From Mobula hypostoma (lineage: Eukaryota): DNA of 64,000 bases. A program made the position numbers and the translations under genes. Position 1 is the stretch's first letter, and each line of letters starts with the position of its first letter. This document shows positions 1 to 45,640 of this stretch, in pieces. The DNA lies in NCBI RefSeq assembly GCF_963921235.1, contig NC_086097.1, positions 134,170,001 to 134,234,000 of the forward strand, read 5' to 3'. The notes under the pieces are model-generated. The model made no database searches. It saw only the letters and a program-made list of their open reading frames with translations, and was not told where the DNA came from.

Positions 1-1342
1 TTGCATTATATATTTTTAAAAATTCATTAAAAGGATGTGTATTTTGCAGTCAAAACCAACATTTAGTAACCATCCCCAACTGCTTTTGAGCAGGGTGGCT
101 TGCAAGATGGTTTAGGAGGACAGTCAGGAAGCTGGAGTTACATACAGTCCAGAAAGGGTAAAGAAGGGCAGATTTCCTCTCTTAAGTGCCTTACCAAACT
201 AAGGCAATCCCATGGCCCTGTGGTCAGCATTATTGGCATCAACCTTCTAATTTTGGTGTATTTAATGAGTTAATTGGCCCTAATGGAATCTAAACACACA
301 TCTCCAAAACTGTGCTCCAACTGGCTGGATTATTGGTTCAGGATATGCTACATTTTCTAGTAAAGTGTTGAAACATCCAAGCAAGCAAAAATATGAAGGA
401 CTCTTTTGTCAGCTGAAATATCCTTAGTCACAGTGGCATTCTAATGTGGGTTCCTACAGGATGTGTAATATCACTTATGCATCACGTAATAAGCTGGATG
501 AAGAGTCCAGCAAAATACACCCATTATTCTGTGGAACACCTGCTGCATATTGACAATAGCCCAACATATGACAGTGAGATTGCTGATGCATATTAAAGAG
601 CAGACAGGGAGGAAGAAAACTGTATAGGATCCCAAACTTCAAAATAAAAAGGCAATATTTTTCAGCTACATTTGAGTTCTATGTAAGTAATTTGTTTCTC
701 TGTATTGGGAGTTCTAAGTTAAATTATCACTCAAAAAAAACTTGCATTTTATGTGCTCTGAGATAAGCTCATGAATATGCAGAGAATGGAGGGATATAGA
801 CCATGTGCAAGCATAATGATTAGGTGTCATTAGCTTAATTAGTTCACCACAACAGCGTAGGCCAAAGGGTCCGTTCCTGTGCTGGACTGTTCTATGTTCT
901 ATGTAACATGTCTGACATGCAAGATATTCCCAAATACTTCAAAGGAATGTTATCAAAACCCACAGAGAAGATTAGTCAGGGAATTCTAAAGATTATATCC
1001 TTGACAGCAAAAGACATGAATGCTGGAGTGAGTTTGTTCAAGAGGCCAGAAGGTGAGCATCATGGACTGGAGAAGATTACAGAGGTGGGGAAGGATGAGA
1101 CTATAGAAGGTTTCGAAAACAAGGATGAGAGTTGTATTGCTTATCTTGGAGTCAGTGAAAGATATCAAGCACAGGAGTGATGGTAAATCAGATTTGATGT
1201 GAGCTTGGACAGAGGCAGCAAAGTTTTGGATAAGCTCAAGTCTTCAGATGGCATAGCCAGCTAGGATTGCATTGAGGTTACAAAGACCAAGACAATTAGT
1301 TTAGCTATGATCTGAATCAGGATTGTGGATGCCCTGTGTTAA

Positions 1343-4095
1343 AACCATAAGGCCATAAGATATAGGAGCATAAATTGGCTATTCGGCCCATCGAGTCTGC
1401 TCCGCCATTCAATCATGGGCTGATGCAATTCTTCCAGTCATCCCCACTTCCCTGCTTTCACCCCATACCCTTTGATGCCCTGGCTAATCAAGAACCCATC
1501 TATCTATGCCTTACACCCAATGACTTAGCCTCCACAGCCGCTCGTGGCAACAAATTCCACAGATTTACCACCCTCTGACTAGGGTAATTTCTCTGCATCT
1601 CAGTTCTAAAAGGACGTCCTTCAATCCTGAAGTCATGCCCTCTTGTCCTGGAATCCCCTACCATGGGAAATAACTTTGCCATATCTAATCTGTTCAGGCC
1701 TTTTAACATTCATTATGTGATCGCCCCTCATTCTCCTAAACTCCAGGGAATACAGCCCAAGAGCTGCCAGACGTTCCTCATACGGTAACCCTCTCATTCC
1801 TGGAATCATTCTCGTGAAACTTCTCTGAACCCTCTCCAATGTCAGTACATCCTTTCTAAAATAAGGAGCCCAAACTGCACTCAATACTCCAAGTGTGGTC
1901 TCATGAGTGCCTTATAGAGCCTCAAAATCACATCCCAGCTCTTATATTCTATACCTCTAGAACTAAATGCCCACATTGCATTCGCCATCTTCATAATCGA
2001 CTCAACCTTGAGGTTAACCTTTAGGGTATGTTGCACAAGGACTCCCAAGTCCCTTTGCATCTCTGCATTTTGAATTCTATCCCCATCTAAATAGTAGTCT
2101 GCCCATTTATTTCTTCCTCCAAAATGCATGATCATACACTTTCCAACATTGTATTTCATTTGCCACTTCTTTGCCCATTCCCCTAAACTATCTAAATCTC
2201 TCTGCAGGCTCTCTGTTTCCTCAACACTTCCCGCTCCTCCACCTATCTTTGTATCATTGGCAAATTTAGCCTCAAATCCATTAATACCGTAGGCCAAATC
2301 ATTGACGTACATCATAAAAAGCAATGGTCCCAACACTGACCCCTGTGGATCTTCACTGGTAACCAGCAGCCAGCCAGAATAGGATCCCTTTATTCCCACT
2401 CTCTGTTTCCTGCCGACCAGCCAATGCTCCACCCATACTCCACCCATGCTAGTAACTTCCCTGTAACTCCATGGGCTCTTATCTTGCTAAGCAGCCTCCT
2501 GTACAGCATCCTGTCAAAGTCCTTCTGAAAATCCAAGTACACCACGTCTACTGCATTTCCTTTGTCTACCCTGCTTGTAATTTCCTCAAAGAGTTGCAGT
2601 AGGTTTGTCGGGCAGGATTTTCCTTTCTGGAAACCATGCTAGCTTTGGCCTATCTTGTTATGTGCCTCCAGGTATTCCATAATGTCATCCCTAACAATCG
2701 ATTCCAACAACTTCCCAGCCACTGATGTCAGGCTAACAGGTCTACAGTTTCCTTTCTGCTGCCTCCCACCCTTCTTAAATAGTGGAATAATATTTGCAAT
2801 TTTCCAGTCATCCAGTACAATGCCAGGATCTATAGATTCTTGAAAGGTAGTTGTTAATGCCTCTGCAATCCCTCCAGTTACTTCCTTCAGAACCCGAGGG
2901 TGCATTCTATCAGGTCCAGGAGATTTATACACCCTCAGACCTTTAAGCTTCCTGAGCGCCTTCTCAGTCGTAATTTTCACTGCACAAATTTCACTTCCCT
3001 GACACTCTTGAATGTCCAGTATACTGCAGACATCTTCCACTGTGAAGACTGATGCAAAATATCCATTCACTTCCTCTGCCATCTCTGCATCTCTCATTAC
3101 AATACCTTCAGCATCATTTTGTATTGGTCCTATATCTACCCTCAACTCTCTTTTACCCTTTTTATACTTAAAAAAGCTTTTAGTATCTTCTTTGATATTA
3201 ATAGCCAGCTTCCTCTCATTTTTCATGTTTCCCTTCTGAATGACCTTCTTAGTTTCCTTCTGCAAGTTTTTAAATGCTCCCCAATCCTCTATCTTCCCAC
3301 TAGCTCTGGCTTCCTTGTATGTCCTCTCTTTTGCTTTTACTTTGGCTCTTACTTCACTTGTCAGCCACGGTAGTGTCCTTCTTCCCTTTGAAAATTTCTT
3401 CTTATTTGGAATATATCTGTCTTGCATTTCCCTCATTTTTTGCAGAAACTCCAGCCATTGCTGTTCTGCTGTCCTTCCTGCAAATGTCCCTTTCCAGTTA
3501 ACTTTGTCCAGTTCTCCTCTCATGCCATTGTAATTTCCTATATTCCACTGAAATAGCGACACCTTGGATTTTATTTTTCCCTCTCAAATTTCAATGTGAA
3601 CTCAATCATATTGTGATCACTGTTCCCTAAGGGTTCCTTAACCTTAAGCTCTCTTATCACCTCCAGATCATTGCACAACACCCAATCCAGCATAGCCAAT
3701 TCCCTAGTGGGCTCAACAACAAGCTGTTCTAAAAATCCATCCCTTAGACATTCTACAAATTCTCTCTCTTGAGGTTCAGTACTGGCCTGGTTTTCCCAAT
3801 CCACTTTCATGTTAAAATCCCCAACGATTATCATGACATTGCCTTTCTGACACGCCTTTTCTATCACCTGCTGTAACTTGTAATCCACATCCTGGCTGCT
3901 GTTTGGAGGTCTGTATACAAATGCCATTAGGGTCCTTTTACTCTTGCCATTTCTTAATTCAACCTATAGAGACTCTACACCTTCCAATCCTATTCATCTC
4001 TTTCCAATGATTTAATATTATTTCTTATACACAGAACCACACCACCCACTCTGCCTACTAACCTATCTTTCCGATATACCATATATCCTTAGACA
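1343..4095 (-). mobile_element. CR1 LINE, 5'-truncated, ORF2 (APE endonuclease + RT) broken by stops and frameshifts
   Basis: ORFs 3571-3927 (YRPP, GDFN, SDHN), 2639-3562 (SPGPD, NCRPVSLTS), 1881-2447 (PQGSVLGP, FANDTK), 1633-1884 and 1500-1709; the 3' tail is a short ccataag repeat at about 1343-1365. Confidence 0.95.
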
Positions 4096-4369
4096 GTCTG
4101 GAGATAGAAGTTGAGACACTTACAGATCATCTATGCGTGTCATCAGAAGCTGATGTTAAGATCAAATATATTACCAGGTTTCCAAACAGTCTCATTCAGT
4201 TTCGGACAGGCACCAAGGAAGGATTTGCAATAGAGGTGAGAGAATAGAGTTGTGTTACGTTGCAAGGACAATAGCTTCAGCTTTCCCACCCTAAGCAGAA
4301 GAAGCTATTGCTTACCCAGAAATGGATGTCAGATAAGAAGCCGGCACACTTAGAGAGTGCGATTTGTAG

Positions 4370-5062: not shown

Positions 5063-5483
5063 AATCAGACAATGAGTTGAAATGTATGAATGAACTCAAG
5101 GAGCGTGGCATCACCAAGCACATTGACATTGGAGAGGGGATGGAAAAGAATACTGAGATCAACCATGTCCAGTACTCAAGGGGAAACAAAGATGGGATTA
5201 CTAGGGTTACAGGCACAACTTTATAAGGAGATGCTTTTGGTAAAAAGCTGATCAGAATGTTTAAAAATGTAAATAAAAAGTGAATTTAAGTCCGGAAAAG
5301 TTGGCGATGGATTTGTGAGCTGACAACACATTCAGATCTATGGAGAGGAAAGGGTGGTTGAAGATGGACAGAAGTATACAAGGATGGGGATGTTCATGGT
5401 TTTACTTTTCAGGGTGATGGTACCAGATCTGGAGATAAAGAGGCAGCACCCAAGGAGACAGAACTGTTAGCAATATCACCAAA

Positions 5484-5549
5484 CCTAGGGTCAAGAAGAG
5501 AAGTCAGGCAAACAATCCTAGGGTCAAGAAGAGAAGTCAGGCAAACAAT
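5484..5549. repeat. Perfect 33-bp tandem duplication
   Basis: CCTAGGGTCAAGAAGAGAAGTCAGGCAAACAAT occurs at 5484-5516 and 5517-5549. Confidence 0.95.
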
Positions 5550-5890
5550 CGTTTGGAGATAATATGGTTAAGGGAGCAGGAGGAAGATCTCATCAACATA
5601 CTGATGGCATGGAAGAAGATAAAGGAATTACTTAATGGAATTAGGTAAAGGCTAAGGCAGGGAGAAGATCGAATCTAATGGTCTTGAAGAAAAGAGGGGG
5701 TTCACCAGATGATCTAAACTTTGCTGTTAAAGAAAGGCATTGAAGTGAAGACTTAGGAATTTGATCTACCAAAAGAAACAAAACTAGGGATTATCTTTGC
5801 AGTCTTGAATGTTCCTGGGACACTGCACAGGAGCATTCTATGTGGTCCAACCAGAGGCAATGTACCATTTCCATCTATCACTGTCCCATG

Positions 5891-6588
5891 TGTAGCTCCC
5901 TGGCCAGCCTCAAGGTCACTCGGCTCGCTGTCGTCTAGGGAAACAGCCCTCGGCCCCACCAAACTGGGTAATAAGTTTGTGTGGATGCTGTGTGATGTAC
6001 CCCACCCCGCCCAAATAACAGACGATACACCAGATACAATTAAATGATTTACAGTTTATAGATATTACTGGAACTATATAATTAATAGAGAATAAAATAT
6101 AACAGGAAAATAAAAGGCGCCACACTTATCAAAGTTTAATCTCTTCGTGCACAAACTGCTGGAGCTCAGGACCCTTCTTCTTCACCCTGCAACCCCTAGG
6201 ACCACCTCGACCAGCCGCCTGGGACCAACAACGGTGGTCAGCCAGACGCTCCACACGAGTCCGTCTCCGTCTCCTCTCCTCGCCGAACGCCCCGCTCGGG
6301 GTTCAACCCCGTTAGCGGACTCACAGCACCTGGTCCATCCTCTGTCTCTCTCTCCCGCTTTCTCCCCCAAAACCCCACGCATACAATATCTTCAGATACA
6401 TCAAAAACATAACAACTATCTCAATTGGTTTGTAACATCTTCTTCTCACAGCCTAACCCAAAACAAGCTGCTAGCGCAAGAACTTTCTCAGCGTTTAACA
6501 TAACAAAGAAGCATTCCCAAGTATAACCTAACAAAGAAGCCATTTTAATTAGCCTAAGCAGTAACATTAAAGACGAAACCCCCTTACA
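5891..6588 (-). repeat. 3' LTR of Gypsy element 1
   Basis: Direct repeat of 9280-9986; begins tgtagc and ends cttaca. Confidence 0.95.
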
Positions 6589-6601
6589 CTCTCCTCCCGC
6601 C
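6589..6601 (-). other. Polypurine tract of Gypsy element 1
   Basis: The minus strand reads GGCGGGAGGAGAG immediately before the 3' LTR. Confidence 0.8.
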
Positions 6602-6870
6602 AAACAAAGTCATGTTCTCATGACTTCTAAATAACTCGCCAACTAGTCCTGCAGACACACAACACACACATACACAGATACACACAGTGACAGTGCTCCC
6701 CGAACAGTGGACCTTATGCCTGGTCCCACAGGCGCTACATAGGACACCCTATCTGAGAGCTTCCTAATCCTCCGATACCTCCGTACCCCCTCACCTAAAC
6801 TCTAAAGGCTCAGACACTACTAGGGATACCTCGGGCCTGCTTGCCAACTCCTCTCCCTCTCAGGCCACTA

Positions 6871-7866
6871 TTAAAACTCGAAGACCCCCCCGCCCCCCCG
6901 GGTCCCGTGTCCAGGGCCCCGCTTCTTTTCCTTTTTTCCTTCCTGATCCTGCCGTAACTCAGACTGCCCACAGCTAGCCCTCCCCACTACACCTGACTCA
7001 GTGGGAGAAGGGCCAAAGGTCTCTTCCTCAATCACGGGGAAGTTAGCGAAAGGCAGCAGGTACCACATGTCCAGCACATCATTCTTCGAATCCATATTCT
7101 TCCTCATTCCCTTGAATGGTTGTTGCTGTTTGAGTTTCTCCAAACTGAAACATTTAGCCGGGGCTACCCCTTCAGCCTCCTGTTTCTTCTTCCTGATGAC
7201 GTCTTCCAGGTCAACCTTCAGTTTTTCCACTTCATTTAAACTGTCGACAGTCATCTTCAGGTTCCTTTCAAGTGTCCGCCTCCCTTTTCCAAGATCTGTC
7301 CTCCATTTCTTCACCTCCTCGGGAGTGTAGTCAAACTCCCCTCCCTGGGCTCTCAGTTTTCTATTGGCCTTAGTCAGAACACTTCCTTGATCTCCCCCAA
7401 CTTGTAAGTCTTCCAATCTTTTCTGAATTGACGTCTTGAGTTTCTGCTGATCCCTTCGAAGGTGGGTCATTGTTTCTTCTTGCTGGATTAATTCATCAGT
7501 ACATGACCGCAGTGTTGGCTCGGAATTCTGTTGCTCCATCTCCATGTTGACGAGCGTGAATTCCAAGTCTGCAATGGTCATCTCACAAGTGTGGCACTCA
7601 GTCTCCGGCTGGCATTTCTGAGTGTTCAGTTCAGCGGTGCAAATCCCCTCTCTCCCATGTGTCTCATTCAGATTGACGACCTGGGTTTCCATCCCCAGGT
7701 CCACCACCGTCGGTTCCAACAACAGGAAGTTCAACTGGTATGTCAGGTCATTTTTCTCACATTGCACCAAACTCCTCCGGCCAAAAACTCCTCCACATTT
7801 GACACCGCCTCTGTCGCCCGGGTTCAGCCTCTCGCCTGACTTCATAGTCCCCCCAGGCGAATCCAA
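6871..7866 (-). CDS. 331-aa chimeric ORF: Gypsy integrase C-terminal remnant fused to a sarcomeric myosin heavy chain rod fragment (expression unknown)
   Basis: The N-terminal [17 protein letters not shown] resembles the Gypsy integrase-tail L.PGDRVLV.N.G..GK motif; residues of about 32-250 align with the myosin II coiled coil. Confidence 0.7.
7120..7773 (-). pseudogene. Captured intronless fragment of a sarcomeric myosin heavy chain rod (subfragment-2 region), most like MYH16
   Basis: [44 protein letters not shown] and [32 protein letters not shown] match, in order and spacing, myosin EKNDL.lQ, IDDLELTLAKVEKE, LDDLQAEEDKVN.LTK..KL and RRK.E.DLKMTID.LNE.E..KLDLEEVVKK (reference sequences recalled, not searched). 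Confidence 0.85.
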
Positions 7867-7869
7867 GCT

Positions 7870-8080
7870 CTAGGTGGTCATCCACATACGCCAAAACTCC
7901 ACACACCTTCACTTCCCCCATGGTCTTCCTCATGCCCCGCAGGAAGGATGCAGGGGCTCCGGATATGCCCTTGGGCATCTTTTCGGGTCGGAAGAATCCT
8001 AGGGAACTAATAACGGCCGTCTTCGGCTCGACAGCCGCACTCCTCGGGATCTGGCAACATCCACTCCTCAGATCTAGCAC
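7870..8080 (-). pseudogene. pol: Degenerate Gypsy reverse transcriptase core fragment
   Basis: [11 protein letters not shown]...[25 protein letters not shown]...VLAYVDD; the similarity ends right after YVDD. Confidence 0.9.
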
Positions 8081-8086
8081 ATTAAA

Positions 8087-8815
8087 TCACGTCACATAAT
8101 CCACACACACGCTGCCTCCATCTTCCACGCTGCCAGGGTCCAGTTGCCGCGACCTCTCTCTCACTGAGGTGTCTTCAGCAGTCAACTCCCCTCCCTCGTG
8201 GTAGTTGGGAGCATCTACTAAGAGGGTCTCACCCTCAGCTACTTTCCCCAAGCCGTACCACCGCTGGGTCTCACTTAAATTCAGTACCGGCTCAAGGCTG
8301 CTACACACATCCTCAGAAGCAACTTGACACGCTGGGTGCCCAGACAATGCCCCCATGAACTCCAGGGTCATTAACCAATCATCGTCTTCTGGATAACTAC
8401 TGGCACTGGTACCCAAAGTCTCCGGTGCCCTTGCGGTTGTCAAGGGTAAATGCTTCAGACACCGGTTGTAAAACGAACTGTACAACAACTTGACCTGCGC
8501 CGTGGCGTCGAGGATGGCTTGAGCATCGCTTCCCTCTATCTGTAACGACACCCTGGGGCGTGGCCCCTCTAAGCCTTCAGGAATAGGGTCTTTTCCTTTT
8601 GGAAGTTCATTGGTACATTGCTGGGAATGTGCATCCCCAGAGACCCCAAGCCATTCCCCCACTGGGCCTCCACTAAGTTTCCCGACACCTCTCTGATCAG
8701 CTGAGCAACTGAAGGAGGGGCTGATCCCCTGAAATGATCCCCCTGGCACTGCAAGCAATTTAGCCTCCCTCCTAGCCAGAGAAGACACATTGAAAACTTT
8801 CCCCCCCTCTTTCAA
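8087..8815 (-). pseudogene. pol: Degenerate Gypsy aspartic protease region
   Basis: [32 protein letters not shown]; the catalytic DTG has decayed to DAT. Confidence 0.8.
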
Positions 8816-9275
8816 AAAAACTGACAGCTGTCACTACGGTGTAAGTGAACCTGACAGCTCTAACACCGTCACCAGTCCACCTACTTAAACTTTCAACCAA
8901 TCCCTGTCGCTGTCCCTCAACCAAGCACTGCCACTCATCTAACAACTGAGAGATCCGCTCCGCCCACGTCTCGCACGCCTCCGCCCCTCTTGGGGTGGAC
9001 ACTATCCCAAACGCCAGGCAGAGCCTGCCAGAGCTAGAACATTTATTCGCAGACACTACCTCCAAATCAGACCACTCTTTCCTCTCTCTCCCAACAGCAT
9101 AGACAGCCCCAAGTTCCACCTCCAACTCGTCAATGCTAGTCTGAATTCGAACAAAGACCTCACCCACCACGCATGCAGCAGTAACCAGCAAATAACCCAC
9201 AGAGACACACATTACTGATTTAAACAGGGCACCCACACAGCATACCAGTAGACCCAATCCCAGACAAAAGCCCAC
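8772..9275 (-). pseudogene. gag: Degenerate PNMA-like Gypsy gag
   Basis: [42 protein letters not shown] resembles the PNMA/Gypsy capsid motif FSG..P.P.GEE.YE.W.EQ....L.EWQCS...KRQRLVESL. Confidence 0.8.
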
Positions 9276-9279
9276 ACAA

Positions 9280-9986
9280 TGTAGCCCCCCGGCCAGCCTC
9301 AGGGTCGCTCGGCTTGCTGTCGTCTAGGGAAACAGCCCTCGGCCCCGCCAAACTGGGTAATAAGTTTGTGTGGATGCTGTGTGATGTACCCCACCCTGCC
9401 CAAATAACAGACAATACACCAGATACAATTAAATGATTTACAGTTTATAGATATTACTGGAACTATATAATTAATAGAGAATAAAATATAACAGGAAAAT
9501 AAAAGGTGCCACACTTATCAAAGTTTAATCTCTTCGTGCACAAACTGTTGGAGCTCAGGACCCTTCTTTTTCACCCTGCGACCCAACGGACCACCTCGAC
9601 CAGCCACCTGGGACCAACAACGGTGGTCGACCAGACGCTCCACACGGGTCCGTCTCTGTCTCCTCTCCTTGCCGAACGCCCCACTCGGGGTTCGACCCCG
9701 TTAGCAGACTGACAGCACCTGGTCCATCCTCTGTCTCTCTCTCTCTCTCTCCCACCTTCTCCCCCAAAACTCCGCGCTTACAATATCTTCAGATACACCA
9801 AAAACATAACAACTATCCCAATTGGTTTGTAATATCTTCTTATCACAGCCTAACCCAAAACAAGCTGCTAGCGCAAGAACTTTCTCAGCGTTTACCATAA
9901 CAAAGAAGCATTCCCAAGTATAACATAACAAAGAAGCCATTTTAATTAGCTTATGCAGTAATATAAAAGACAAAACCCCCTTTACA
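9280..9986 (-). repeat. 5' LTR of Gypsy element 1
   Basis: Direct repeat of 5891-6588 with scattered substitutions and a longer (CT)n tract. Confidence 0.95.
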
Positions 9987-11466
9987 CATGGTTATTAAAA
10001 AGCAAAGATTAATGCAATGATAGCAGAGAGCAATATGAGGAAATGACCAGAGAAAGCTTTACATTTGACTGGGATGACATGGTGTATGCTGGAGTTGACA
10101 TGAAAATAGGCAAGAAAAGAGTCACTAAACAAGGATAAGAGTGTTTTGAACCCAGGTGAATTCATAAAGAGTTCGAACACAACAGGGACAAAAAAATTGT
10201 GGGTGCAGACACAGATGGAGGGAAGAAGAAATGTGATTTACTGATTGCCTGTGAGGTCTGACTGGTGGGAGATGTAACTTCAAAAGTGCTGGGACAATAT
10301 CTAAACAGGAGGAATGTGTACTTTATTATCACTTAAGAGGGGCTATAAATGTGTCTTTGAGTCTACTTTACCATTCAACAAGAACATTGATATCCCTGCA
10401 TTTCTAGTCCACAGTTTCCATATCCCTCAATTCTCAGGTACACAAAAATCAATCTCAGCCTTGAAAATACTCAAGGGGATTTTTTTTCTCTTTACAGCTC
10501 TATGATGTAGATAATTCCAAATGCATTCCACCAACTACTGCACAAGAAATATCATCTCCCTGGAGTCTCAAATGGCCCAACACCTCACACTGAGATACAT
10601 CCTCCTTGGTTGAACCTCTCCAGCCAGGAGGTGGAACCTCTCGGCGGCTATCTGTCAACGTCTCTCTAACGTAAATCTTCTTAATTCAACCCCCTTATCC
10701 AAAGAATCTCTTCCAATATTAGCCTGCACAATTACTGAGTCCTGATATTTTCACAGTAATTAAAAAATAAAGAACTTTAATAAATACACATTACAAGATT
10801 GATTCTCACTCATGCTCATAATAAGCTGGTGAACAACATACACTGGTATCTACTTAAGCATCAACATACCCCAAGGATTACTAGCACATGGAAATAAATA
10901 TTGTGCAGTGCAGGTGTTCATCTTTACACTGTACCTGATATCATGTCAATTCAGTCTGCAGAGATAGGCAACATACTAAGTTAAATCATATTAATAGTGC
11001 TTTAGATCTTATAACTATAAATAGATTTTTAATTCCCTTAATTTTATGGTATGTGAAAATTGCAATATAAAATCTCTGCTTAAAACCATCAGGGCCTTTA
11101 TTACATTTTATGAAATTGCCTGGCAAGAACTAAAATCTCTATTGAATGCAGAAGCTAATTCTTAGCATGCTTCCAGAGTCATTCCTCTAGCCACAAAAAG
11201 TATCTTGGCAGCTCTGTCATAAATGCTTTGTGGCTTGATCTGAAGCGTGATTCCAAATTTGAGACACTATTATTTCCTATTTAGAACAGTGTTTCTAGCT
11301 GTCAATGAGCAAGGATTTTTTTTTAAAGTTTGAACTAAAGTAACCTTGAATTGAAACATTCCTTCCTAAAATTCCTGCTTCCTTCCAGTGTAGCTTTCCT
11401 AAGAAGCCAGAAAGTCTACATTTTGTATAAGCAAGGACTGCTGTTTTTTCTATGAGTTGTAGTAGT

Positions 11467-15036: not shown

Positions 15037-15468
15037 GTTATAGAAAACTACAGCACAGTAACAGGCCCTTCAGCCCATCTAGTCCATGTTGAACCATTTA
15101 AACTGCCTGCTCCCATCAACCTACACCAATCGCATCCACCAATGGTGCTGCAGCTCTCACCATCCTCTGAGAGAAGAAGTTGCCCCTCGTGTTCCCAGTA
15201 AACATTTCATCTTTCACCCTTAACCGATGACCTGTAGTTGCAGTCTCATCAATGGAAAGAAACCTGCTTGCAGTTAACCTATCTATAACCCTCATAATTT
15301 TGCATATCTTTGTCAAATCTCCCCTCATTAATCTACTTTCTAATAACTAAAGTTCTAGCCTATTCAATCTTTCCTTATAACCCGGCAATATCCTTGTAAA
15401 TTTTCTCTGTAACACTTACAGTACGCTGGATGAACTCAGCAGGTCAGGCAGCATCAGTGGAAACGATG

Positions 15469-15504
15469 AGTCGACATTTCGAGTCAGAACCCTTCGTCAG
15501 GACT
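15469..15504 (-). ncRNA. Minimal type I hammerhead ribozyme motif in the inverted pseudo-LTR
   Basis: Minus strand reads AGUC CUGACGA A GGGU-UCUG-ACUC GAAA UG UC GACU. Confidence 0.7.
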
Positions 15505-15857
15505 GAAGAATGAAGGAGTTGGAAGGATTTGAAGAATGCTTGTAGGTTCAGTTGAAAGACCAGTAATTTGAAAGACAAAGGGGTGGGGGAGAGGAAGCAT
15601 CGACATCATGGCAGGAAAACAATGGGTAGTAGAAGAAGGAGGCGGAACCATGAGGGAGGTGATAGGCAGCTGGGGGAGGGGGCAGAGTGAAATAGGGATA
15701 GAGGAAGGGAGGGGATCGGTCCCTCCACGACTCCCTTATCTGCAAATCCATCCCCACGGATCTCCCACCCGGCACTTATCCCTGTAAGCGTAAGTGCTAC
15801 ACCTGTCCCTACACCTCCTCTCTTGCCACTATTCAGGGCCCCAAACAGTCCTTCCAG

Positions 15858-16184
15858 GTGAGGCAACACTTCACTTGTGAGTCTGTTGGGGTCATCTTTT
15901 GCATCCGGTGCTCCCGGTGCGGCCTCCTCTACATCGGTGAAACCCGACGCAGATTGGGGGACCGCTTCATTGAGCGCCTTCAATCCGTCCGCCACAACAG
16001 ACAGGATCTCCCAGTAGCCACCCACTTCAACTCTGCTTCCCACTCCCATTCAGATATGTCCATACATGGCCTCCTCTACTGCCATGATGAGGCTAAATTC
16101 AGGTTGGAGGAGCAACACCTCATATACCGTCTAGGTAGTCTCCAGCCCCTTGGTATGAACATAGAATTCTCCAACTTCCGGTAA
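15858..16184 (+). pseudogene. Penelope GIY-YIG endonuclease domain (C-terminal part of the ORF only)
   Basis: FTCESVGVIFCIRCSRCGLLYIGETRRRLGDRF...PVATHFNS..H...RLEEQHLI..LGSLQPLGMN. Confidence 0.92.
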
Positions 16185-16401
16185 TTCCCTCCCCCTCCCT
16201 TCCTCTATCCCTATTTCACTCTGCCCCCTCCCCCAGCTGCCTATCACTTCCCTCATGGTTCCGCCTCCTTCTACTACCCATTGTTTTCCTGCCTATGATG
16301 TCGATGCTTCCTCTCCCCCACCCCTTTGTCTTTCAAATTACTGGTCTTTCAACTGAACCTACAAGCATTCTTCAAATCCCCTTCCACCTCCTTCATTCTT
16401 C

Positions 16402-16437
16402 AGTCCTGACGAAGGGTTCCGACCCGAAACGTCAACT
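16402..16437 (+). ncRNA. Minimal type I hammerhead ribozyme motif in the Penelope 3' pseudo-LTR
   Basis: AGUC CUGACGA A GGGU-UCCG-ACCC GAAA CG UC AACU: conserved core, 4-bp stem II, palindromic ACGU in place of helix III, one mismatch in stem I. Confidence 0.8.
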
Positions 16438-19400
16438 CATCGTTTCCACTGATGCTGCCCGACCTGCTGAGCTCATCCAGCGTACTGTAAGTGTTGCTTT
16501 GATTACAGCATCTGCAGATTATTTTGTGTTTAAATTTTCTCTGTACTCTTTCAATCTTATTTACATCTTTCTTGTAGGTACAGCAGGTGAATGAAACTGC
16601 ACACAGTACTCCAACTTAGGCTTCATCAATATCCTATACCGCTTCAACATAACACGACAAATGCTGTACTCAATACATTGATCTATGAAGACCAATGTGC
16701 CAAAAGCTTTCCTTACAACCTTGGCTACAGTTCTGTGACGCCACTTTCAATAAATTATGGAGCTGTTTTCCCAGATCCCTTTGTTCTATTGCACTTCTCA
16801 GTATCCTACCGCCCACTGTCTAAGACCTACCCTGGTATGTCCTCCCAAAGTGCAACACCTCACACTTGTCTGCATTGAATTCTATCTGCCACTGTTCAGC
16901 CCATTTCTCCAGCTGGTCCAGATCCCACTGCAAGCTTTGATAGTCTTTCTCACTGTCCTCTACACCCCCAAACTTGGTGCCACCCACAAATTTGCTGATC
17001 CAGTTAACCGCATTATCATCCAGATCATCCACAACAGACCCAACACCAATACCTGTGACACTCTACTAGTCACAAGCTTTCAGTCAGAGAGGCAACCATC
17101 TACTACCACGCTCTGGCTTCTGCCCAAAGCCAATGTCTAATCCAATTCACTACCTCATCCTGAATATCAAGCAACTGAACCTTTTTGACCAGCCTTCCCT
17201 GCAGGACTTGTCAAATTCCCCGCTGAAATCCATGTGGACAATTTCCACTGTTTTGCCTTCATCAACTTTCCTGGTATTGACCTACTATGCTAACAATCCC
17301 TAATCAGTCCCTATCTATCTAAATATTCATATATTGGGTTGTTTAGAATACCTTCCCATATCTTTCCTACTACTGACATCTGGCTCACCAGCCAATAATC
17401 TCCAGGTTTATTTCTAGAACCTTTCTTAAACAGCAGAACAACATCAGCAATCCTCCAATCCTCTGGTACCCCACATGTCACTAAGGATGATTTAAATATC
17501 TCTGCTAGGGCCCCTGCAATTTCTGCACTTGCATCCCACATTGTCAGGCCTTGGGGATTTGTCCACCTAATTTGCCTCCTCCTCTGTAATCTGTATAGGG
17601 CCCATAAACTTGGTGCTGCTTTGCCTCATCTTATAGACTCAGGGTCAGTCTCCCGAGTAAATACAGATGGAAAAAATCGATTTACGATCTTGCAGTCTCT
17701 TTTGCCTCCATGGATAGATTACCATTCTGATCTTCCAGAGGACTAATTTTGTCCCTTGCAATCCTTTTGCTCTTTATACACATGTAGAAGGCCTTAGGAT
17801 TCTCCTTCACTTTGTCTGCTAGAGCAGCCTCATGACTTCTTTTAGCTCTCCCGACTTCTTTCTTGCATTTCATATACTCCTTAAGTACCTCATTTCTTCC
17901 TGCCTGCCTATACCTGCTATACACCTTTTTTTTCTTAATCTCTTTTGAAAACCAAGGTTTCCTAAACCTGTTATCCTTACCTTTTACTATATCAGGCACA
18001 TGCAAGCTTTGTGCTCTCAGAATTTCACTTTTGAAGGCCTCGCACTTGCCTTTGCCAGAAAACAGCTTGTCACAATCCACACTTGCCAATCCTTTCTGAT
18101 ACCAGCAAAATTGGCCTTTCACCAATTTAGAATCTCCACCCACAGATCTGACCTATCCTTTTCCATAGTTACCTTGAAACTAATGGCATTATGATCACTG
18201 AATGCAAAGTGTTCCCCTACACAAATCTCTGTCACCTGCCCTGTCTCATTCCCTAATAGGAGATCAAGTATTGCACATTCTCTTGTTGGGACTTCTATGT
18301 ACTGATTAAGAAAACTTTCCTGAACACATATGACAAACTCTATTCCATCTAGTACTTTACAGCATGGGAGTCCCAGTCAATATTTGTCAAGTTAAAATCA
18401 CCAACTATCATAACTTTATGTTTCTTGTAATAGTCTGTGATCTCCCTACAAATTAGTTCCTCTAAATTACACGGACTGTTGGGTGATATATAAGATAGCC
18501 ACATTAACGTGATCATACTTTTCTTATTCCTCATTTCTACTCATAAAGTCTCACTGGATGAGTTCTCCAGTCTGTTCTGACTGAGCACTGCCATGGCATT
18601 TTCCCACCCCTCCCCCTTTAATCCCTCCCACTCTATTCCGGTATGTTGAGCTGCTAGTCCTGCCCCTCCTACAAAAAAGTCTCATTATAGCTACAATATT
18701 ATAATTCCATGTGTTGATGCATGCCCTGATCTCATCTGCCTTCCTTACAACACTTCTTGCATTGAAATAAACGCAACTCAGAACGTTAGTCACATGCTCA
18801 ACCTTTTGATTTCTGAATTTGTCTGAGGTCTTAACGATATCTGTCTCCACAACCACTCCACTGTCTGTTCTGACACTCTGGTTCCCATACCCTGCAACTC
18901 TAGTTTAAGCACCTCTGTGCAGTACTAGCAAACCTTCCTGCTGGGATATTAGCCCCCACCAATTTAGTTGCAAATCGTCTCTTCTGTACAGGTCCAAAAT
19001 TCCCTGGAAGAGAGCCCAGTGATCCTCCCTCCTGCACCAACTCCTTAGCCATGTGTTAAACTGTATGATCTTCCTTTTTCTGGTGTCACTAGCATGTGGT
19101 ATGGGTAGGAGTCATGAGATCATGACCCTGGAGGTCCTGTCCTTTAATTTAGCACCTAACTCCATGAACTCATTTTGCGGAACCTCCTCCCTCTTCCTAC
19201 CTAAGTCATTGGACTGTATATGGACTATGACCTCTGGCTTCTCACCCTCCTACTTAAGAATGTTGAGGACTTGATCCAAGTTGTCCCAGACCCTGACGCC
19301 CGGGAGGCAACATATCATCCAGGAATCATCTTATCCATAGAACCTCCTTTCTGTTTCCCTGACTAACAAATCCCCTATCACCATAGCTCCCCTCTTTCTC

Positions 19401-30479: not shown

Positions 30480-31787
30480 CTGAAAGTATCTTGGAGGCAA
30501 ATTATAAAATAAGCCAAAGTCAGCATGGTTTCTTTAAGGGGAAATCTTGACTGACAAATTGTTCAAATTCTTTGAGGAAATACCAAGCAGTATAGACAAA
30601 GGAGAATTGGTGGATGTTGTGTACTTGGACTTGCAGAAGGCCTTTGACAAGTTGCGCACATGAGGCTGCTTAACAAAATAAGAGCAAGAAAGATACTAGA
30701 ATGGTTAGAAGATTGGCTGATTGGCAGGAGACAAAGAGTGGGAGTAAAGGGAACCTTTCCTGATTGACTTCTGGTGACCAGTGGTGTTCTGCAGAGATCG
30801 GTGTTACATTATACATCAATGGTTTCGATGACAGAATGGATGGCTTTGTGGCCAAGCTTGCACAAGAGAGGAAGATAGGTGAGGGGGCAGGTAATGTTGA
30901 GGAAGAAGAGAGACTGCAGAAGGACTTAGACAGATTAGGAGAATGGGCAAAGTGGTGTCAGATGGAATGTAGTGTTGGGTAGTGTATGGACATGCACTTT
31001 GTTAGAAAGAACAGAAGCATAGATATTTTCTAAATAGGCACAATATTCAAAAATCTGAAGTGCAAAGAGACTTGGGAGTCCTCATGCAGGACTCCCTAAA
31101 GATTAACTTACAGGTTGAGTCAGTAATAAGGAAAGGAAATGCGATGTTAGCATTCATTTTGAAAGGATTAGAATATAAAAGTGAGCATGTAATGCTGATG
31201 CTTTATAAAGCACTAGTGAGGCCTCATTTGGAATATTCTGAGCAGCTTTGGGCCCCTTATCTAAGAAAGGACATGCTGACATTGGAGAGGGTTCAGAGGA
31301 GGTTAACGAAAATGATTTTGAGAATGAAAAGGTTATCTTATGAGGAGTGCCTGAAAGCTCTACGCCTGTATTCACTGGAATTTAGAAGAATGAGGGAGGA
31401 TCTCATTGAAAATTATCGAATGTTGAAAGGCCTAGATAGAGTGGATGTGGAGAGGACGTTTCCTGTAGTGGGGGAGTCTAAGACCAGAAAGCACAGCCTC
31501 AGAAAAGAGGAATGTCCATTTAGAAAGGAGATGAGAAGGAATTTCTTTAGCCAGAGAGTGGTGAATCTGTGGAATTGATTTCCACAGGCAGCTGTGGAGA
31601 CCAGGTCATTGAGTGTAGTATTTAAGGCAGAGGCTGATGGTTTTTGATCAGTCAAGGCATGAAGGGATATGGGAAGAAGATTGGAGAATGGGGTTGAAGG
31701 GGGAAAATGGACCTGCCATGAAAATGGCGGAGCAGATTTGATGGGTCAAATGGCCTAATTGTGCTCCTAACTCATATGATGTTATGG
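30480..31787 (+). mobile_element. CR1 LINE, 3' part of ORF2 and tail
   Basis: ORFs 30764-30982 and 31060-31578 (QRDLGV, LVRPHLEY, RNFFSQRVVNLWN). Confidence 0.93.
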
Positions 31788-32107
31788 TAGACATCCCACC
31801 CTGCAAAAACTCATTTCAGGGAGGTAGCCCCCCCGCCCCCCCCAAACCCCATATCCCCCCCCCCGCAACCCCATATCCCCCACCCCCACGTCAACCTCCA
31901 AAGGTGTATGTAATACTTTGTTTAGTGAGTTTGTCTAATCTGTAAACCAAGTTGAGTATATGTAGAAAATGTGACATTAAAATTGGACTTATATTATATT
32001 ATCATATTTATTCTATTACAACTTTAAGCAAGTCTACAGGGAGTTTGGCCTCATCACGTAGGACATCAATAGCGTAGCTCCTTGGCAGCTAGCCAGCTAG
32101 TTTAAAT

Positions 32108-38205: not shown

Positions 38206-41200
38206 TAAGGGGTTCAAATGCAACCTGATCAATGCCTTATAAAGGCTCAGCATCACATCTTTGCTCTTATATTATAGTCCTCTCAAAATGAATGCTACAT
38301 TGCATTTGTCTTCCTTACCAATGACTCAACCTGCAAGTTAACCCTTAGGGAAGCCTGCACAAGGTCTTCCAAATACCTCTGCTCCTCTGATTTTTGAATT
38401 TTCTCCTCTTTTAGAAAATAGTCTATGCCTTTATTCCTTCTACCAAAGTGCATGACCATACATTTTCTTACACTGCATTCCATCTGCCACTTCTTTGCCC
38501 ATTCCCCCAATATGTCAAAGTCTTCTGCAGAATCCCTGCTTCCTTAACACTACCTGACCCTCCCCCTATTTTTTATCATCTGCAAACTTGGCTACAAAGC
38601 CATCAATTTCGTCATCCAAATCATTGACATATAATGTGAAAACAAGTGATCCCAACACCAACCCCTACGGAATTCCACTAGTCACTGGCAGCCAACCAGA
38701 GTAGGTCCTCAACTCCTTGCCTCCTGCCAATCAGCCAATCTTCTACCATGCTGGAGTCGAGGACCTATTCTGTAATACAATGGGCTCCTATCTTATTAAG
38801 CAACCTCACATGCGGCATGTTGTCAAAGGCCTTCTGGACTCCAACATCTGCCCAACCACTAAAGTCAGGCTAACTGGCCTATCATTTCCTTTCTTCTGCC
38901 TCCCTCCCTTACTAAAGGTGGAGTGGCATTTGCTGTTTTCCAGTCCTCCAGAACCATTCCAGAATCTACTGATTCTTGAAAGATCATTTCTAATGCCTCC
39001 ACAATCTCTTCAGCTTCCTCTTTCAGAACTCTGGGGTGTAGTTCATCTTATCCCTGTGACTTATTTACCTTCAGACCATTCAGCTTCCCAAGCACCTTCT
39101 CCTTAATATTAACAATTACACTCATTTCTGCTCCCTGACACTCTCAAATTTCTGGTGTAGTGTCTTCCACAAAGATGATTGATGCAAAATACTTATAAAG
39201 TTCATCCGCCTTTTTTTTTCCCTAGGTTCTCTAGCATCATTTTCCAGCAGTCCAGTATACACTCCTGCCTTTCTTTTACTCTTTATAAATCTGAAAAAAA
39301 ATTCTTTTGGTATCCCCTTTGATATTTTTGGCTAGTTTACCTTCATAATTCATCTTTTCTCTCCTTATGAAATTTTTTAGTTGCCCTCTACTGGTTTTTA
39401 AAAGCTTCCCAATCCTCTAACCTGTCACTATTTTTTGCTATATTATATGCACTCTCATTTGCTTTTATTCTCTCCTTGACTTCTCTTTTCAGCCACAGTT
39501 ACCTATTCTTCCTTTAGAATACTACTTCATCTTTGGGGTGTATCTATCCTGAGCCTTCTTAATTGCTACTGCTGAGTGACCCCTCCAATCAACTTTGAGG
39601 CCAGCGCCTCTCTCATGCCTCTGTAATTTTCTTTACTCCACTATAATACTGATACATCTGACTTTAGTTTCTCCTTCTCAAACTGCTAGGTGAATCCTAT
39701 CATAATATGATCACTGCCTCCCAAGGATTCCTTTATCTTAAGCTCCCTAATCAAATCTGCTTCATTATACAACCCCCAATCCAGAAATGTCTTTCCCTTA
39801 GAGGGCTCAAACACAAGCTGCTCTAAAAAGCCAACTAATAGGCTTTCTACAAATTCCCTCTCTTGGGATCCAGCAACAACCTGATTTTCCCAATCTACCT
39901 GCAAATTGAATTCCCTCATGACTATCGTGACATTGCCCTTAATACATGCCATTTCTATTTCCCTTTGAAATGTATATCCCACCTCCTGGCTACTGTTCAG
40001 GGGCCTGTATATAACTTCCATCAGGGTCTTTTTACCCTGGGAGTTTCTTAACTCTACTGCAAGGATACTACAGCTTTCAATTCTATGTCACCTCTTTCTA
40101 AGGATTTGATTTTATTTTTTACCAACAGATCTACCCCTCTGACTACCTGCCTGTCCTTTCCACACAAGGTGTTTCCTTGGATGTTAAGCTCCCATCTATG
40201 ATCTTCTTTCAGGCATGTTTCAGTCATGCCCACAATGTCACACCTGCCAGTCTCTAACTGTGCTACAAGATCACCCATCTTATTCCATATATGCCTTGAC
40301 CTACTGAGTTCCTCCAACAGAACTCCAAATTCCAGCATCTGCATTCTCTCATGTCTCTAGTGGAGAAGCTGCAAGTCCAAGCCTTCCTGTAAAGTTTTGA
40401 CAGCCAGTGCCATAAGACCATGAGACATAGGAGCAGAATTAGGCCATCTGGCCCTTTGAGTCTGCTTCGCCATTCAATCATGACTGATAATTTCTTTTAT
40501 ATCTCCTCCACAACCCTAGTTCCCGGCCTTCTCCCTGTAACCTTTGATGCCAGTACAATCAAGAACCTATCAATCTCTGTCTTAAATACACCCAGCGATC
40601 AGGACTTCACAGCTGCATGTGGCCACAAATTCACCATCACCTAAAGAAATTTCTCCACATCTCTGTTTCGAAAGGGTGCCCCTCTATCCTGAGGCTGTAC
40701 CCTCTTGTCCTAGACTCTCTCACCATGGGAAACATCTTTTCCACATCTACTCTGTCTAGGCCTTTCAACATTCGAAAAGTTTCAATGAGATCCCCCCCTC
40801 ATCCTTCTGAATTCCACTGAATACAGAACCAGAGCCATCAAATGTTCTTTGTATGATAACCTTTCCATTCCTGGAATCATCCTTGTGAACCTCCTCTGGA
40901 CCCTCTCCACTGCCAGCACATCTTTTCTAAGATGAGGGGCCCAAAACTGTTCACAATACTCAAGGTTCACAATACTGTTCACCAGTGCCTTATAAAGCCT
41001 CAGCATCATATCCTTGCTCTTTGATTCTAGACCTCTTGAAATGAATGCTAACATGGCATTTGCCTTCCTCACCACCAACTCAACCTGCAAGTTAACCTTT
41101 AGGGTGTTCTGCACAAGGACTCCCAAGTCCCTCTGCATCTCAGATTTCTGTATTTTCTCCCTGCTGAGAAAATAGTCCACACATTTATTTCTACTACCAA

Positions 41201-41367
41201 AGTGCATGAGCATGCATTTTCCAACACTGTGTTTCATTTGCTACTTCCTTGCCAATTTTCCTAATCGGTCAAAGTTCTTTTGCATCCTACCTGTTTCCTT
41301 AACACTAACTGCCCTCCACCAATCTTCATATCATCTGCAAACATAGCAAAAAAGCCATCTATTCCAT

Positions 41368-41597
41368 TGAAGCACGTTTAATAACTCCAAAAGACTGAGG
41401 TTTGGTAAAATACTGAAAGGCTTTTATTCGCTGTACAATATGAATTCCACGGTGAGTGTCTGCCCCCGGACTGAGGGGGAGGGGCAAGGCGAAACACCTT
41501 TATATAGGATTCTGTGGGAGGAGCCACAGGGTCAGTCAGCAGAGGGGCGTGTCCAGACAGTTAACCCAGTTACAACATATATACATGGTTTACCACA
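41368..41597 (-). repeat. 3' LTR of Gypsy element 2 (polypurine tract adjacent at 41598-41617)
   Basis: Direct repeat of 45641-45868; the minus strand upstream reads AAAAAAAAAGGAGGGGTGAA. Confidence 0.95.
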
Positions 41598-41669
41598 TTC
41601 ACCCCTCCTTTTTTTTTAAAAAAGAGTCCCGTGGGGTGAAGTGACTGACAATATTTAAAACAAGTATAT

Positions 41670-44650
41670 TTACAGGTCAAGTATACCAGGCGGTCGAGTC
41701 CGTCGCTGTGATCTATGTAGCACCGGTGGTGATTGCATCGGCGACGGCGGTTGTGCTGGCTCTGGCCTGACTTGAGGTGCCAGCGCGTTAGGCGTTGTTA
41801 ATCCCTCGTGCGTGTGCGTCACGCCCAGTATGGGAGTGTCGTGTGGTGTCTGTGTCGGTTTTGGAGTGCACGGTGTCTTGTGGGTACATACATCGGTGGG
41901 TACGGGGTCAACAGTCACCACAGAGTGTTCAGGGTAGGGGCCCGGTGCTCCTGTGGGCACCAGGTCGCGGATGGAGACCGTGTCCTCCTGCCCATCAGGT
42001 AGAACCACATAGGCATACTGAGAGTTCGCATGAAGTAAGTGAACCCTCTCGACCATCGGGGAGGATTTATTGCCCCTCGCATGTTTCCGGAGCGGCACTG
42101 ACCCCGGAGACGTCAGCCAAGATGGTAGGGTGGTTCCAGTGGTCGACTTTCTGGGAAAAGAAAAGAGCCGCTCATGAGGGGTGGCATTGATGGCCGTGCA
42201 TAACAGGGAGCGGATGGAGTGGAGTGCCTCAGGAAGGACCTCCTCCCAGCGGGAGACCGGCAGTCCCTTTGACCTGAGGGCTAAGAGTGTGGCTTTCCAC
42301 ACCGTGGCATTCTCCTTCTCCACCTGTCCATTCCCCCGGGGTTATAGCTCGTGGTCCTACTAGTTGCAATTCCCGTAGCCAGTAGGTATTGGTGCAGCTC
42401 GTCACTCATAAACGAGGACCCTCTGTCACTGTGGATATAGCATGGGTATCCGAACAGAGTGAAGAGCTTGTGCAGGGCTTTTATAACTAACGTGGTAGTG
42501 GTGTCAGGGCAGGGGATGGCGAAGGGGAACCGCAAGTACTCATCGATAACGTTAAGAAAGTACACATTGCAATCGGTGGAGGGAAGGGGGCCCTTAAAGT
42601 CAACACTCAGTCGCTCAAAGGGGCGGGTGGCCTTGATGAGTTGTGCCTTTTCGGGTCGGTAAAAGTGCGGTTTGCACTCTACGCAGACTTGGCAGTCCCT
42701 GGTCATTGTCCTGATCTCCTCAAGGGAGTAAGGCAGGTTCTGGGCTTTCACGAAGTGGAAAAGCCGGGTGACCCCCGGGTGGCAAAGATCTACATGTAGA
42801 GCGTATAGCCGGTTGATCTGTGCGCTGGCACATGTTCCCCGGGATAGGGCGTCGGAGGGCTCGTTGAGCTTCCCAGGCCTGTACATGATGTCATAGTTGT
42901 AGGTGGAGAGTTCGATTCTCCACCTCAGAATTTTATCATTTTTGATTTTGCTCCGCTGTTGATTATTAAACATGAGTGCGACTGAGTGCTGGTCAGTTAG
43001 CAGGGTGAACCTTTTGCTGGCAAGATAGTGCCTCCAGTGCCTAATAGCTTCCACTATGGCCTGGGCCTCTTTCTCCACCATGGAGTGCCGAATTTCAGGG
43101 CCTTGAATGGTACGGGAGAAGAACGCCACTGGTCTTCCCGCCTGGTTGAGGGTAGCAGTCAGCGCAAAGTCGGAGGCGTCACTCTCTACTTGGAAGGGAA
43201 TGGCCTCGTCCACCGCATGCATTGCTCCTTTGGCAATGTCTCCTTTTATGCAGCTGTAGGCCACATGGGCCTCGGCTGAGAGGGGGAATGTGGTGGACTT
43301 GACCAGGGGGTGGGCCTTGTCTGCGTAGTTAGAGACCCGTTGGGCGTAATATGAAAAGAAGCCCAGGCACCTTTTGAAGGCTCTGAGGGTGTTGGGAAGA
43401 GGGAGTTCCAACAGGGTGCGCATGCGGTCGGGGTCAGGGCCAATGACTCCATTCTCCACGACACACCCAAGGATAGCAAGTCAGGTGGGCCCGAATGCAC
43501 ACTTATCCTTGTTATAGGTGAGATTGAAAGCATTGGCCGCTTGGAGAAATTTTTGGTGGTTGTTGTCGTGATCCTGCCAGTCGTGACCACAGATGGTGAT
43601 GTTATCCAGATATGGGAATGTGGTTTTCAGTTGGCACTGGTCCACCATCCAGTCCATTGCCCTCTGGAAGACAGATACACCATTCGTGACACCGAAGGGG
43701 ACACGCAGGAATTGATAAAGCCTGCCGTCTACCTCGAAGGCAGTGTAAGGGCGGTCCTCCCGGCGGATGGGGAGCTGATGGTAAGTGGATTTTAGGTCTA
43801 TGGTCGAGTACACCTTGTACTGTGCTATCTGATTGACCATATCCGCGATGTGGGGTAGAGGGTACGCGTCGAGCTGCGTGAACCTATTGATGGTCTGGCT
43901 ATAGTCCACGACCATCCTATTCTTCTCCCCGTTCCGAACAACGACCACCTGCGCCCTCCAAGGACTTGTGCTTGCCTCAATGACCCCCTCCCCGAGCAGC
44001 CGCTGCACCTCCAACTTAATGAAAGCTCTGTCCCCCGCGCTGTACCTCCTGCTTTTAGTTGCCACAGGTTTACAGTTGGGGGTCAGGTTGGCGAACAGCG
44101 GTGGGTGGGGGGATCCTGAGGGTGGAGAGGCCGCAAGTGGCGTCGGTAGTGTGGCAGTTGGTATGGTGTTGGGTGGGATGTGCGGGTTGGTGTTCGTGTG
44201 TGGTCAGTAGCAGGGTATGTGACGTCTCCCTACAAAACTGGGGATTTACAACAGTAATTGGTGGGAGGGGCCCATCATACTTCATTGTCACGCTTGTCAG
44301 GTGGCTCTGGAAGTCAAGCCCCAATAGCACAGGGGCACACAGTTGAGGCAAGACCAGTAACATAAAGTCTCAATATTCTGTGCCCTGCACCACTAGCGTC
44401 GCTACACAACCTCCCCCCCCCCCCCCCGGATGTCTGTTGTTGTATGTGACCTGGAAGCCATGGAGACCCTCTGACTTACGGGCCGTATCATGAGTTCGCA
44501 ATGCTGCACCGTGTCCGGGCGGATAAAACTCTCCGTGCTGCCTGTGTCAAACAGGCAGCTTGTCCTGCACCTCTCCACCAGGACGTCCATCATTGACCTT
44601 GCGAGCTGGTGGGGAGCACTTTGGTTGAGGGTCACGGAAGCCAGGGTTGG
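41670..44650 (-). pseudogene. pol: Gypsy pol (protease, RT, RNase H, integrase), several frameshifts
   Basis: CLFDTGSTESF (44402-44833); DYSQTIN, IDLKSTYHQ, RVPFGVTNG, YLDN (43481-44065); ESDASD, VEKEAQAI, TDQ, HHCC zinc finger, VDFKG, SDRGSSF (42281-43459); integrase C-terminus (41670-42323). Confidence 0.95.
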
Positions 44651-44844
44651 GTCACTGTCTTGGTCCGGCGCGGTGGGGTGCCCCGTGAGCACCCATTGGT
44701 CGTAGGCAGTGGGAGGTGGCACCAACCAAGATGGCCGCCCCCATGTCTCGCATGTGGTGGCGGCGTGCTGGGAAGATGGCGGCAGGCAAGATGGCGACCC
44801 CCATGTTTCGCACACGGCGCTGCTCGATCCCACTCGCGGTTTGA

Positions 44845-45614
44845 CCCTTCGCGAAGTGGCCCTTCTTTCCGCAGCTGGAACAGGTAGCTTCTCGGATCGG
44901 GCAGCGTTTCCGGGGGTGCTTCTCCAGTCTGCAGAAGTAGCACTTTGCGGACTCGTGACTGGCAGCAGCCAAGGTCAATTTGCCGGCTGGTTGTGGGGAC
45001 TTGAGAATGGTGGCAGCCGAGGTCGATTTGCCGGTGGGTTGCAGGGTCTGCAGCGCCCATGAGGCCATCGGGGGATTGCGTGCCTGGAGAGCCTTGGAGT
45101 TATGCAGAGCAGCCTCCAGCGTGTCGGCCAGTTCGATCGCTGAACTTAAGGTAAGATCAGCTTTTTCCAACAGCCGCTGGCGCACATACACTGACCTGGT
45201 CCCCGTGACGAAGGCGTCTCTCACTAGGAGCTCTGCTTGCTGCGCCGCCATCAGCTCCTGGCAATTGCAGGCTCACACGAGTGTCCGTAGGGCCTGGACG
45301 AACTTAGCACTTGATTCCCTGGGCCGTTGTTGCCATGTCACTAAGCGGTGCCAAGCATAGCCGCTGTTTATCGGCCGCAGGTATTGTCCTTTGAGGGCAC
45401 TCATCGTACCATCGTAGCTTGGCTGGTCTCTGATCAGCGAATAGACCCATGGACTGACCCTGGAGAGTACAACTCTGCGCTTCGCTACGGGGTCGGTCAT
45501 TTTAATCTGCTCTAGGTACGCTTCGAAGCAGGCCAGCCAGAGTTCAAAAGCATTTCCAGCTTCAGGCGTTTGCGGATCGAGGTCTAATTTGTCGGGTCTC
45601 AGGGCATGTTCCAT
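44845..45614 (-). pseudogene. gag: Gypsy gag with tandem zinc knuckles, frameshifted
   Basis: ATG lies 27 nt after the 5' LTR; ORFs 45273-45614 and 44652-45251; CYFC...H...RC and CSSCGKKGHFAK. Confidence 0.9.
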
Positions 45615-45640
45615 GCTTTAAAATGTACAGCGAATAAAAT

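Follow-up and report, generated by a model that had tools for sequence, protein, structure and literature searches.

A Ty3/Gypsy element carrying a captured myosin piece belongs to an old, probably non-autonomous LTR family in rays

Structure of the element

The window, a 64-kb stretch of Mobula hypostoma DNA, contains a 4,096-bp Ty3/Gypsy element on the minus strand (9986 to 5891), in which a truncated reverse transcriptase (RT) is followed by a piece of a myosin heavy chain (Table 1). Both LTRs read TGTAG..TTACA on the plus strand and hence TG..CA on the coding minus strand, and the CATG target-site duplication is identical on both sides, as a preliminary description of the locus had stated. 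The same description held that the LTRs differ only by scattered substitutions; on aligning them, 41 substitutions were found over 698 sites (5.9%; K2P 0.062; 31 transitions and 10 transversions, 18 of the 41 in CpG context) together with two indels, a distance too large for near-identical LTRs. Downstream of the 5' LTR (9240-9279), the interior starts with TTG, not TGG, and no tRNA or Rfam match was found within the 64-kb window.

Table 1. Coordinates of the element and its parts in the window
Feature	Position	Strand	Basis or remark
Target-site duplication CATG, left copy	5887..5890	.	Sequence
3' LTR, 698 nt	5891..6588	-	LTR alignment; contigs of organisms A and B cross from the flank into the LTR
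Polypurine-tract-like run directly before the 3' LTR	6589..6601	-	Sequence; putative role
Retroelement tail after the myosin piece, same frame	6874..7110	-	Common to Mobula and Hypanus models
Short second myosin piece (rod, about residues 1400-1430)	7110..7170	-	Weak alone against intact myosin, E 0.067
Captured, apparently intron-free myosin heavy chain S2/rod piece, presumably MYH16-like	7171..7773	-	MYH7 913-1087 match
RT-to-myosin junction; frame change in the window copy	7804..7830	-	Comparison with sibling models
Ty3/Gypsy RT stub ending shortly past YVDD	7835..8130	-	Profile search, sibling alignment
Open frame: gag end, protease-like stretch, linker	8130..8815	-	Frame list, sibling alignment
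PNMA-type gag stub; frame change near 8815 in the window copy	8820..9278	-	PF14893, E 0.00065, below the family cut-off
5' LTR, 707 nt	9280..9986	-	LTR alignment; canonical TGG primer-binding start absent after the LTR
Target-site duplication CATG, right copy	9987..9990	.	Sequence

The interior comprises 2,691 nt, most of which is tiled by four stop-free frames (8772-9323, 8087-8830, 7757-8086 and 6871-7869, spanning 6871-9279), in agreement with the earlier observation. In a Pfam search of these frames, the RVT_1 match covered only profile positions 72-157 of 205 (E 0.001) and the PNMA gag match was weak (E 0.0008); the RT indeed ends after YVDD, and no RNase H or integrase family was detected in the four frames or in seven related proteins. 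Within the RT stub, 26 codons are deleted at 8086, and a single stop occupies 8087-8089. In the open frame next to it, a protease-like motif lies near 8501-8509 and a 51-codon deletion at 8350; the protease-like stretch has no Pfam match, its label is our assumption from a DTG-type motif (DAT in the window copy), and the Atlas features of a sibling, which point to protease and RT clusters, are a lead only. The tail after the myosin piece, for which no Pfam match was found, is probably the end of pol, and we take it to be a putative integrase tail. The assignment to Ty3/Gypsy comes from the order gag-protease-RT and from RT similarity, the latter a pairwise match rather than a tree; a sibling protein of Hypanus (P0061) matches Ty3 RT with an E of 5.6e-11. 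By its paired TG..CA LTRs, short target-site duplication and polypurine tract, the element can be classed as a derived Ty3/Gypsy element and, measured against a complete RT, RNase H and integrase, is not autonomous.

Elsewhere in the window, many decayed copies that are 67-80% alike (within 1344-4098, 30492-31788, 38225-41364, 46681-48835, 58686-59212 and 62933-63709) are presumably CR1/LINE-like. Inverted 307-nt repeats, 95% alike (15411-16495), surround a 160-residue frame (15702-16184), which we take to resemble the GIY-YIG endonuclease end of a Penelope-type element. The left flank holds a 33-nt tandem duplication (5480-5545) that is absent in a contig of organism B (joint 5483-5517).

The captured myosin piece

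In the last frame, a stretch of 175 residues aligns to MYH7 913-1087 with no gap at all (E 1.5e-15); it lies in sense and in frame with the coding strand of the element. The MYH16-like label is presumed from recall and from the NCBI names of siblings, with no tree behind it. The window protein is 35% identical to two intact-type myosins, compared with a distance of about 4% between the window copy and the family majority, which bears out the divergence described earlier. The two myosin pieces are joined in the window copy by an in-frame 54-codon deletion near 7170, which is absent from all six Mobula models covering that place. DNA-derived myosin fragments (P0043, P0044 and P0059) match only query residues 182-228 and then run into unrelated sequence; these matches would represent one exon, and since the window copy continues on both sides, the captured piece appears to be intron-free. 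Homology demonstrates the capture itself at the sequence level, and the element counts as an LTR-mediated retrocopy, in which part of a host mRNA, free of introns, has taken the place of internal ORFs between the LTRs.

On comparing the element with myosins, it was found that 92 of its 111 differences from P0015 and 37 of its 41 differences from the Narcine myosin P0017 are common to the sibling majority. These two proteins are proxies that mix host change with element change, since the host myosin of rays was not found; shared deletions are free of that problem. A search for long myosins gave no ray parent gene, which is weak evidence. P0017, with 33 of 46 residues identical in its best block, may itself be degraded.

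Copies and spread of the family

Sibling copies were traced in contigs of four runs (X1, X5, X9 and X10, from three organisms) mapped on 5291-9279; that X9 is RNA is a guess, as its profile is close to that of X10, a DNA run of low depth. Part of the stretch is present in 20 of 24 listed runs from four organisms, and each of the four mapped runs covers every one of the 20 interior bins. The median interior depth is about 1,650 times (X1) and 1,640 times (X5) that of the flank (range about 450-3,400), a value of about 1,600 that is taken as an order of magnitude only, since contig depth does not measure copy number. The depth of the myosin bins is similar to that of the protease-RT bins. The LTR bins reach about 11,000-fold of the flank, some 7 times the interior, an excess compatible with solo LTRs or other interiors. 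In X1, 98 contigs continue past the LTR end into flanks that vary (agreement 0.47), the picture expected of independent insertions. There is no second copy of the element within the 64-kb window.

Protein searches identified sibling gene models in Mobula birostris, M. hypostoma, Hypanus sabinus and Hemitrygon akajei, and the family therefore spans two ray families. The window copy has 77-87% protein identity to four Mobula models and 60-61% to two Hypanus models over 585 codons; between subfamilies, the RT stubs have 57-71% identity. The multi-copy spread of the chimera can be regarded as practically certain, and its many dispersed copies with the same defective structure constitute a non-autonomous LTR family. 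The idea of a single copy that decayed in place is refuted by these many siblings.

No helper element was found among the longer proteins, where the three matches were all chimeric siblings, or in metagenome and viral contigs. In a second Gypsy element on the minus strand of the window (41670-45272), long frames cover gag, RT, RNase H and integrase-like parts; a pair of 236-nt repeats with 94% similarity (41366-41601 and 45639-45872) would be its candidate LTRs. This element was rejected as a partner, with an RT identity of 18/83 and no DNA match.

Order of capture, erosion and insertion

Three models of M. birostris (P0003, P0063 and P0064) share the 51-codon deletion at 8350 and the 26-codon deletion at 8086, have the RT-myosin junction in common and read through it, and siblings with these pol deletions and this junction lie on other chromosomes and in other species. 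Hence, capture and most of the erosion predate the insertion of the window copy. The preliminary description had proposed that order for the decay as a whole; it holds for the amino-acid sequence, but the reading frame had not decayed. The expectation that siblings would have the same breakpoints was likewise borne out for the junction and the 51- and 26-codon deletions, but not for the 54-codon deletion or for one of 40 codons. The latter (120 nt) is carried by four models and recurs at DNA joints whose depth is about 60 and 87 times that of the flank, and the window copy lacks it; judging from these sequences, the family kept losing pieces while spreading. The DAT motif of the protease had also been read as decay before insertion, and this part has to be withdrawn: at place 8502, within the motif, nearly all family contigs differ from the window copy, so that the lesion is at least partly private and no evidence of earlier decay.

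The insertion itself is old, since it is shared by organisms A and B, whose contigs bridge flank and LTR with 0 differences over 422 nt and 10 over 617, respectively, and since the LTRs are not near-identical. The window copy differs from the X1 contig majority at 138 of 3,389 nt (4.1%) and from that of X5 at 152. Seventy-five of the 138 differences are T>C or A>G, the pattern of CpG decay in the window copy, and the distance of about 4% agrees with that between the LTRs. The differences from the majority fall on codon positions 1/2/3 as 8/11/10 (29 scored, among 40 of 223 places listed).

It would alternatively be conceivable that the interior decayed in place while gene conversion kept the LTRs alike, or that copies arose by segmental duplication. 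LTR conversion could have occurred in a single pair, and the protease motif, the stop at 8087 and probably the 54-codon deletion look private or rare; against this, the deletions and the junction recur on other chromosomes and in other species, the flank has single-copy depth and the interior is over a thousandfold deeper, the flanks at the LTR end vary and the copy has its own 4-bp duplication. Such an origin is thus highly improbable.

One long open frame

By alignment, the four stop-free frames of the window appear to be pieces of one long frame. Three Hypanus loci have 729-residue models that are 93-97% identical (XP_059820834.1, XP_059820679.1 and XP_059823747.1), three further loci have models of 632-691 residues, and the Hypanus models match, as one protein, the successive gag, middle and myosin frames of the window. 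In M. birostris, P0064 has 450 residues in one frame from the linker through RT and myosin. In the window copy, the frame is interrupted at three places (near 8815, at 8087 and near 7804-7830). For the interruption near 8815, an indel difference was seen in 72-76% of the depth (X1, X5) and in all of X10 and X9. Neither frame has a Pfam match within gag at 8640-8815, where part of gag may be read in a shifted frame in both subfamilies; over this stretch, the ancestral Gag frame may differ from the one that the Hypanus models share with the window. The sibling frames were read from gene models, which are selected for open frames and possibly spliced.

Along the homology path, one stop is present in 799 codons, where 7.3-8.7 would be expected (P 0.002-0.006) on a window branch of d about 0.10, some 40% of the distance to Hypanus as derived from 15-20 informative sites. 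The other two minus-strand frames carry 101 stops in 1,598 codons (6.3%), so base composition does not explain the deficit. The single stop is compatible with decay after insertion (2.4-3.1 expected). When the count is restricted to the 585 codons aligned with Hypanus, the deficit is weaker (5.3-6.4 expected, P 0.013-0.031); when both master branches are counted, with Hypanus at zero stops, P is 0.0002, a value that leans on gene models. Deletions were tallied from 15 of 85 joints, leaving out two joints past the frame end, a flank joint and a go-back joint and merging repeats of one event. Those in multiple copies measured 120, 60 and net 57 nt, with one of 667 nt unresolved, whereas none of the four single-copy deletions was a multiple of three (Fisher P 0.03, or 0.14 with the 667-nt joint counted). 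This contrast is small and lends weak support, and microhomology in coding DNA favors in-frame deletions anyway.

The residues behaved differently from the frame. Mismatches to Hypanus have a mean BLOSUM62 score of -0.35 to -0.85, compared with about -0.6 for the neutral expectation and +0.32 for mismatches between two host myosins, and the amino-acid changes in the gag, middle and myosin parts hence look neutral. It was considered whether a functional Gag-myosin fusion protein, acting as a coiled-coil tether of the particle or restricting the helper, is under selection. The kept frame, the PNMA-type N-terminus and a coiled-coil register that can be aligned gap-free over 175 residues would suit such a protein. 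The neutral residue pattern makes it less likely, and prolines and glycines sit inside the coiled coil of the element, while the subfamilies retain different, partly non-overlapping myosin pieces; a working protein is accordingly quite doubtful.

A simpler alternative accepts the same non-autonomous family and treats the myosin and pol remnants as pure passengers, the open frame being due to luck, mutation bias or annotation bias. Neutral residues, the modest P values of the strict 585-codon set and the choice of gene models for open frames agree with it. However, the stop deficit is visible in the window DNA itself, other frames of the same strand are rich in stops, and the frame is open over one and the same span in two subfamilies that differ by about 40%, so that this alternative is unlikely, though less so than a working protein. 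The more probable reading is that master lineages kept one open frame from gag to tail while the residues changed as if neutral.

Proposed history and comparison with known systems

The best explanation, to which a probability of about 0.75 was assigned, is an old non-autonomous family whose master lineages kept one frame open; the preferred reading is that the frame was selected for translatability, not for a protein. In the ancestor of stingrays and devil rays, a Ty3/Gypsy element would have exchanged RNase H and integrase for spliced myosin rod cDNA, possibly through template switching, as inferred from Tan 2016 (PMC5131818). Having retained LTR ends and polypurine tract, the chimera would have been copied further by an intact helper; this mobilization in trans is inferred from the missing RNase H and integrase. 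Subfamilies would then have separated, drifted to 55-70% protein identity and shed more pieces, and the window copy would have inserted late in the history of the family, before organisms A and B split, with some 3-4% of decay thereafter. The RNA would need end-to-end translation for stability or for packaging with helper Gag, and the myosin piece would be stop-free filler rather than working myosin. Avoidance of nonsense-mediated decay is an equal candidate reason for an open frame; a narrow literature search gave no paper linking it to such elements.

Capture by LTR elements with later non-autonomous copying is already known (PMC5131818; Bs1, PMC13317346). In LTR-mediated retrocopies of animals, partial spliced mRNA replaces internal ORFs between LTRs, often, as in the ray chimera, in sense and in frame, and two fly retrocopies present at several insertion sites have been proposed as non-autonomous elements (PMC5131818). 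What sets the ray chimera apart from the cases described there is a copy number of roughly a thousand in order of magnitude, its division into several subfamilies and its presence in two ray families. Among older retrocopies, 14 of 21 are reported to have carried loss-of-function changes and constrained ones to have had low KA/KS (PMC5131818), whereas in the ray chimera the frame is open and the residues look unconstrained. The maize LTR element Bs1, with captured host gene pieces in a chimeric ORF, is described as transcribed, translated and possibly functional (PMC13317346), while the ray chimera is known here from sequence. Defective D-type elements of bovine ERVK[2-1-LTR] outnumber and parasitize competent ones; they are described as having no intact ORFs, unlike the ray chimera (PMC10924933).

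In the mouse IAP 1Δ1 element, a deleted gag-pol is in one frame and helper proteins are needed in trans, while the fusion protein that it encodes is said to promote its retrotransposition in cis (PMC7411935). The mobile lineages of the ray chimera likewise have a single open fusion frame, partly on the evidence of gene models. IAP is presented as a young ERV of near-intact sequence and without host cargo (PMC7411935); the ray chimera is a Gypsy element whose subfamilies have drifted about 40% apart in protein and which carries an in-frame myosin piece, and a cis role for its product would be an analogy. By that analogy, a need for translation may be the most likely reason for the open frame, a proposal with roughly even odds. 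It is equally balanced whether selection on translatability alone lasted so long that a frame of about 730-800 codons stayed open across ray families with neutral residues and interchangeable myosin filler. No published account of the family was found in the literature, although supplements and repeat libraries (Repbase, Dfam) may hold one; neither 'myosin' nor 'retrotranspos' occurs in the main text of a mobulid genome preprint of 2026.

Consequences for annotation and significance

The prediction of spurious myosin-like annotations was confirmed, as six sibling gene models bear myosin names (P0065, P0006, P0010, P0011, P0012 and P0013). Three element-derived models are listed as isoforms of unrelated host genes: P0061, P0064 and P0009 appear under isoform X1 of host genes, namely TMEM192 and SDHAF3 in Hypanus and GSTT2 in Mobula. 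In P0009, a host N-terminus is joined to the myosin piece, which is possibly real read-through or exonization. The chimera thus contaminates ray annotations and can inflate counts of the myosin family. It represents host-gene capture by an LTR element that was amplified to a very large vertebrate family. If the frame was kept by selection on translation, that selection would be measurable from the copies alone, and hundreds of dated copies would allow a coupling of translation to RNA packaging, or to the avoidance of decay, to be tested in LTR elements under natural conditions.
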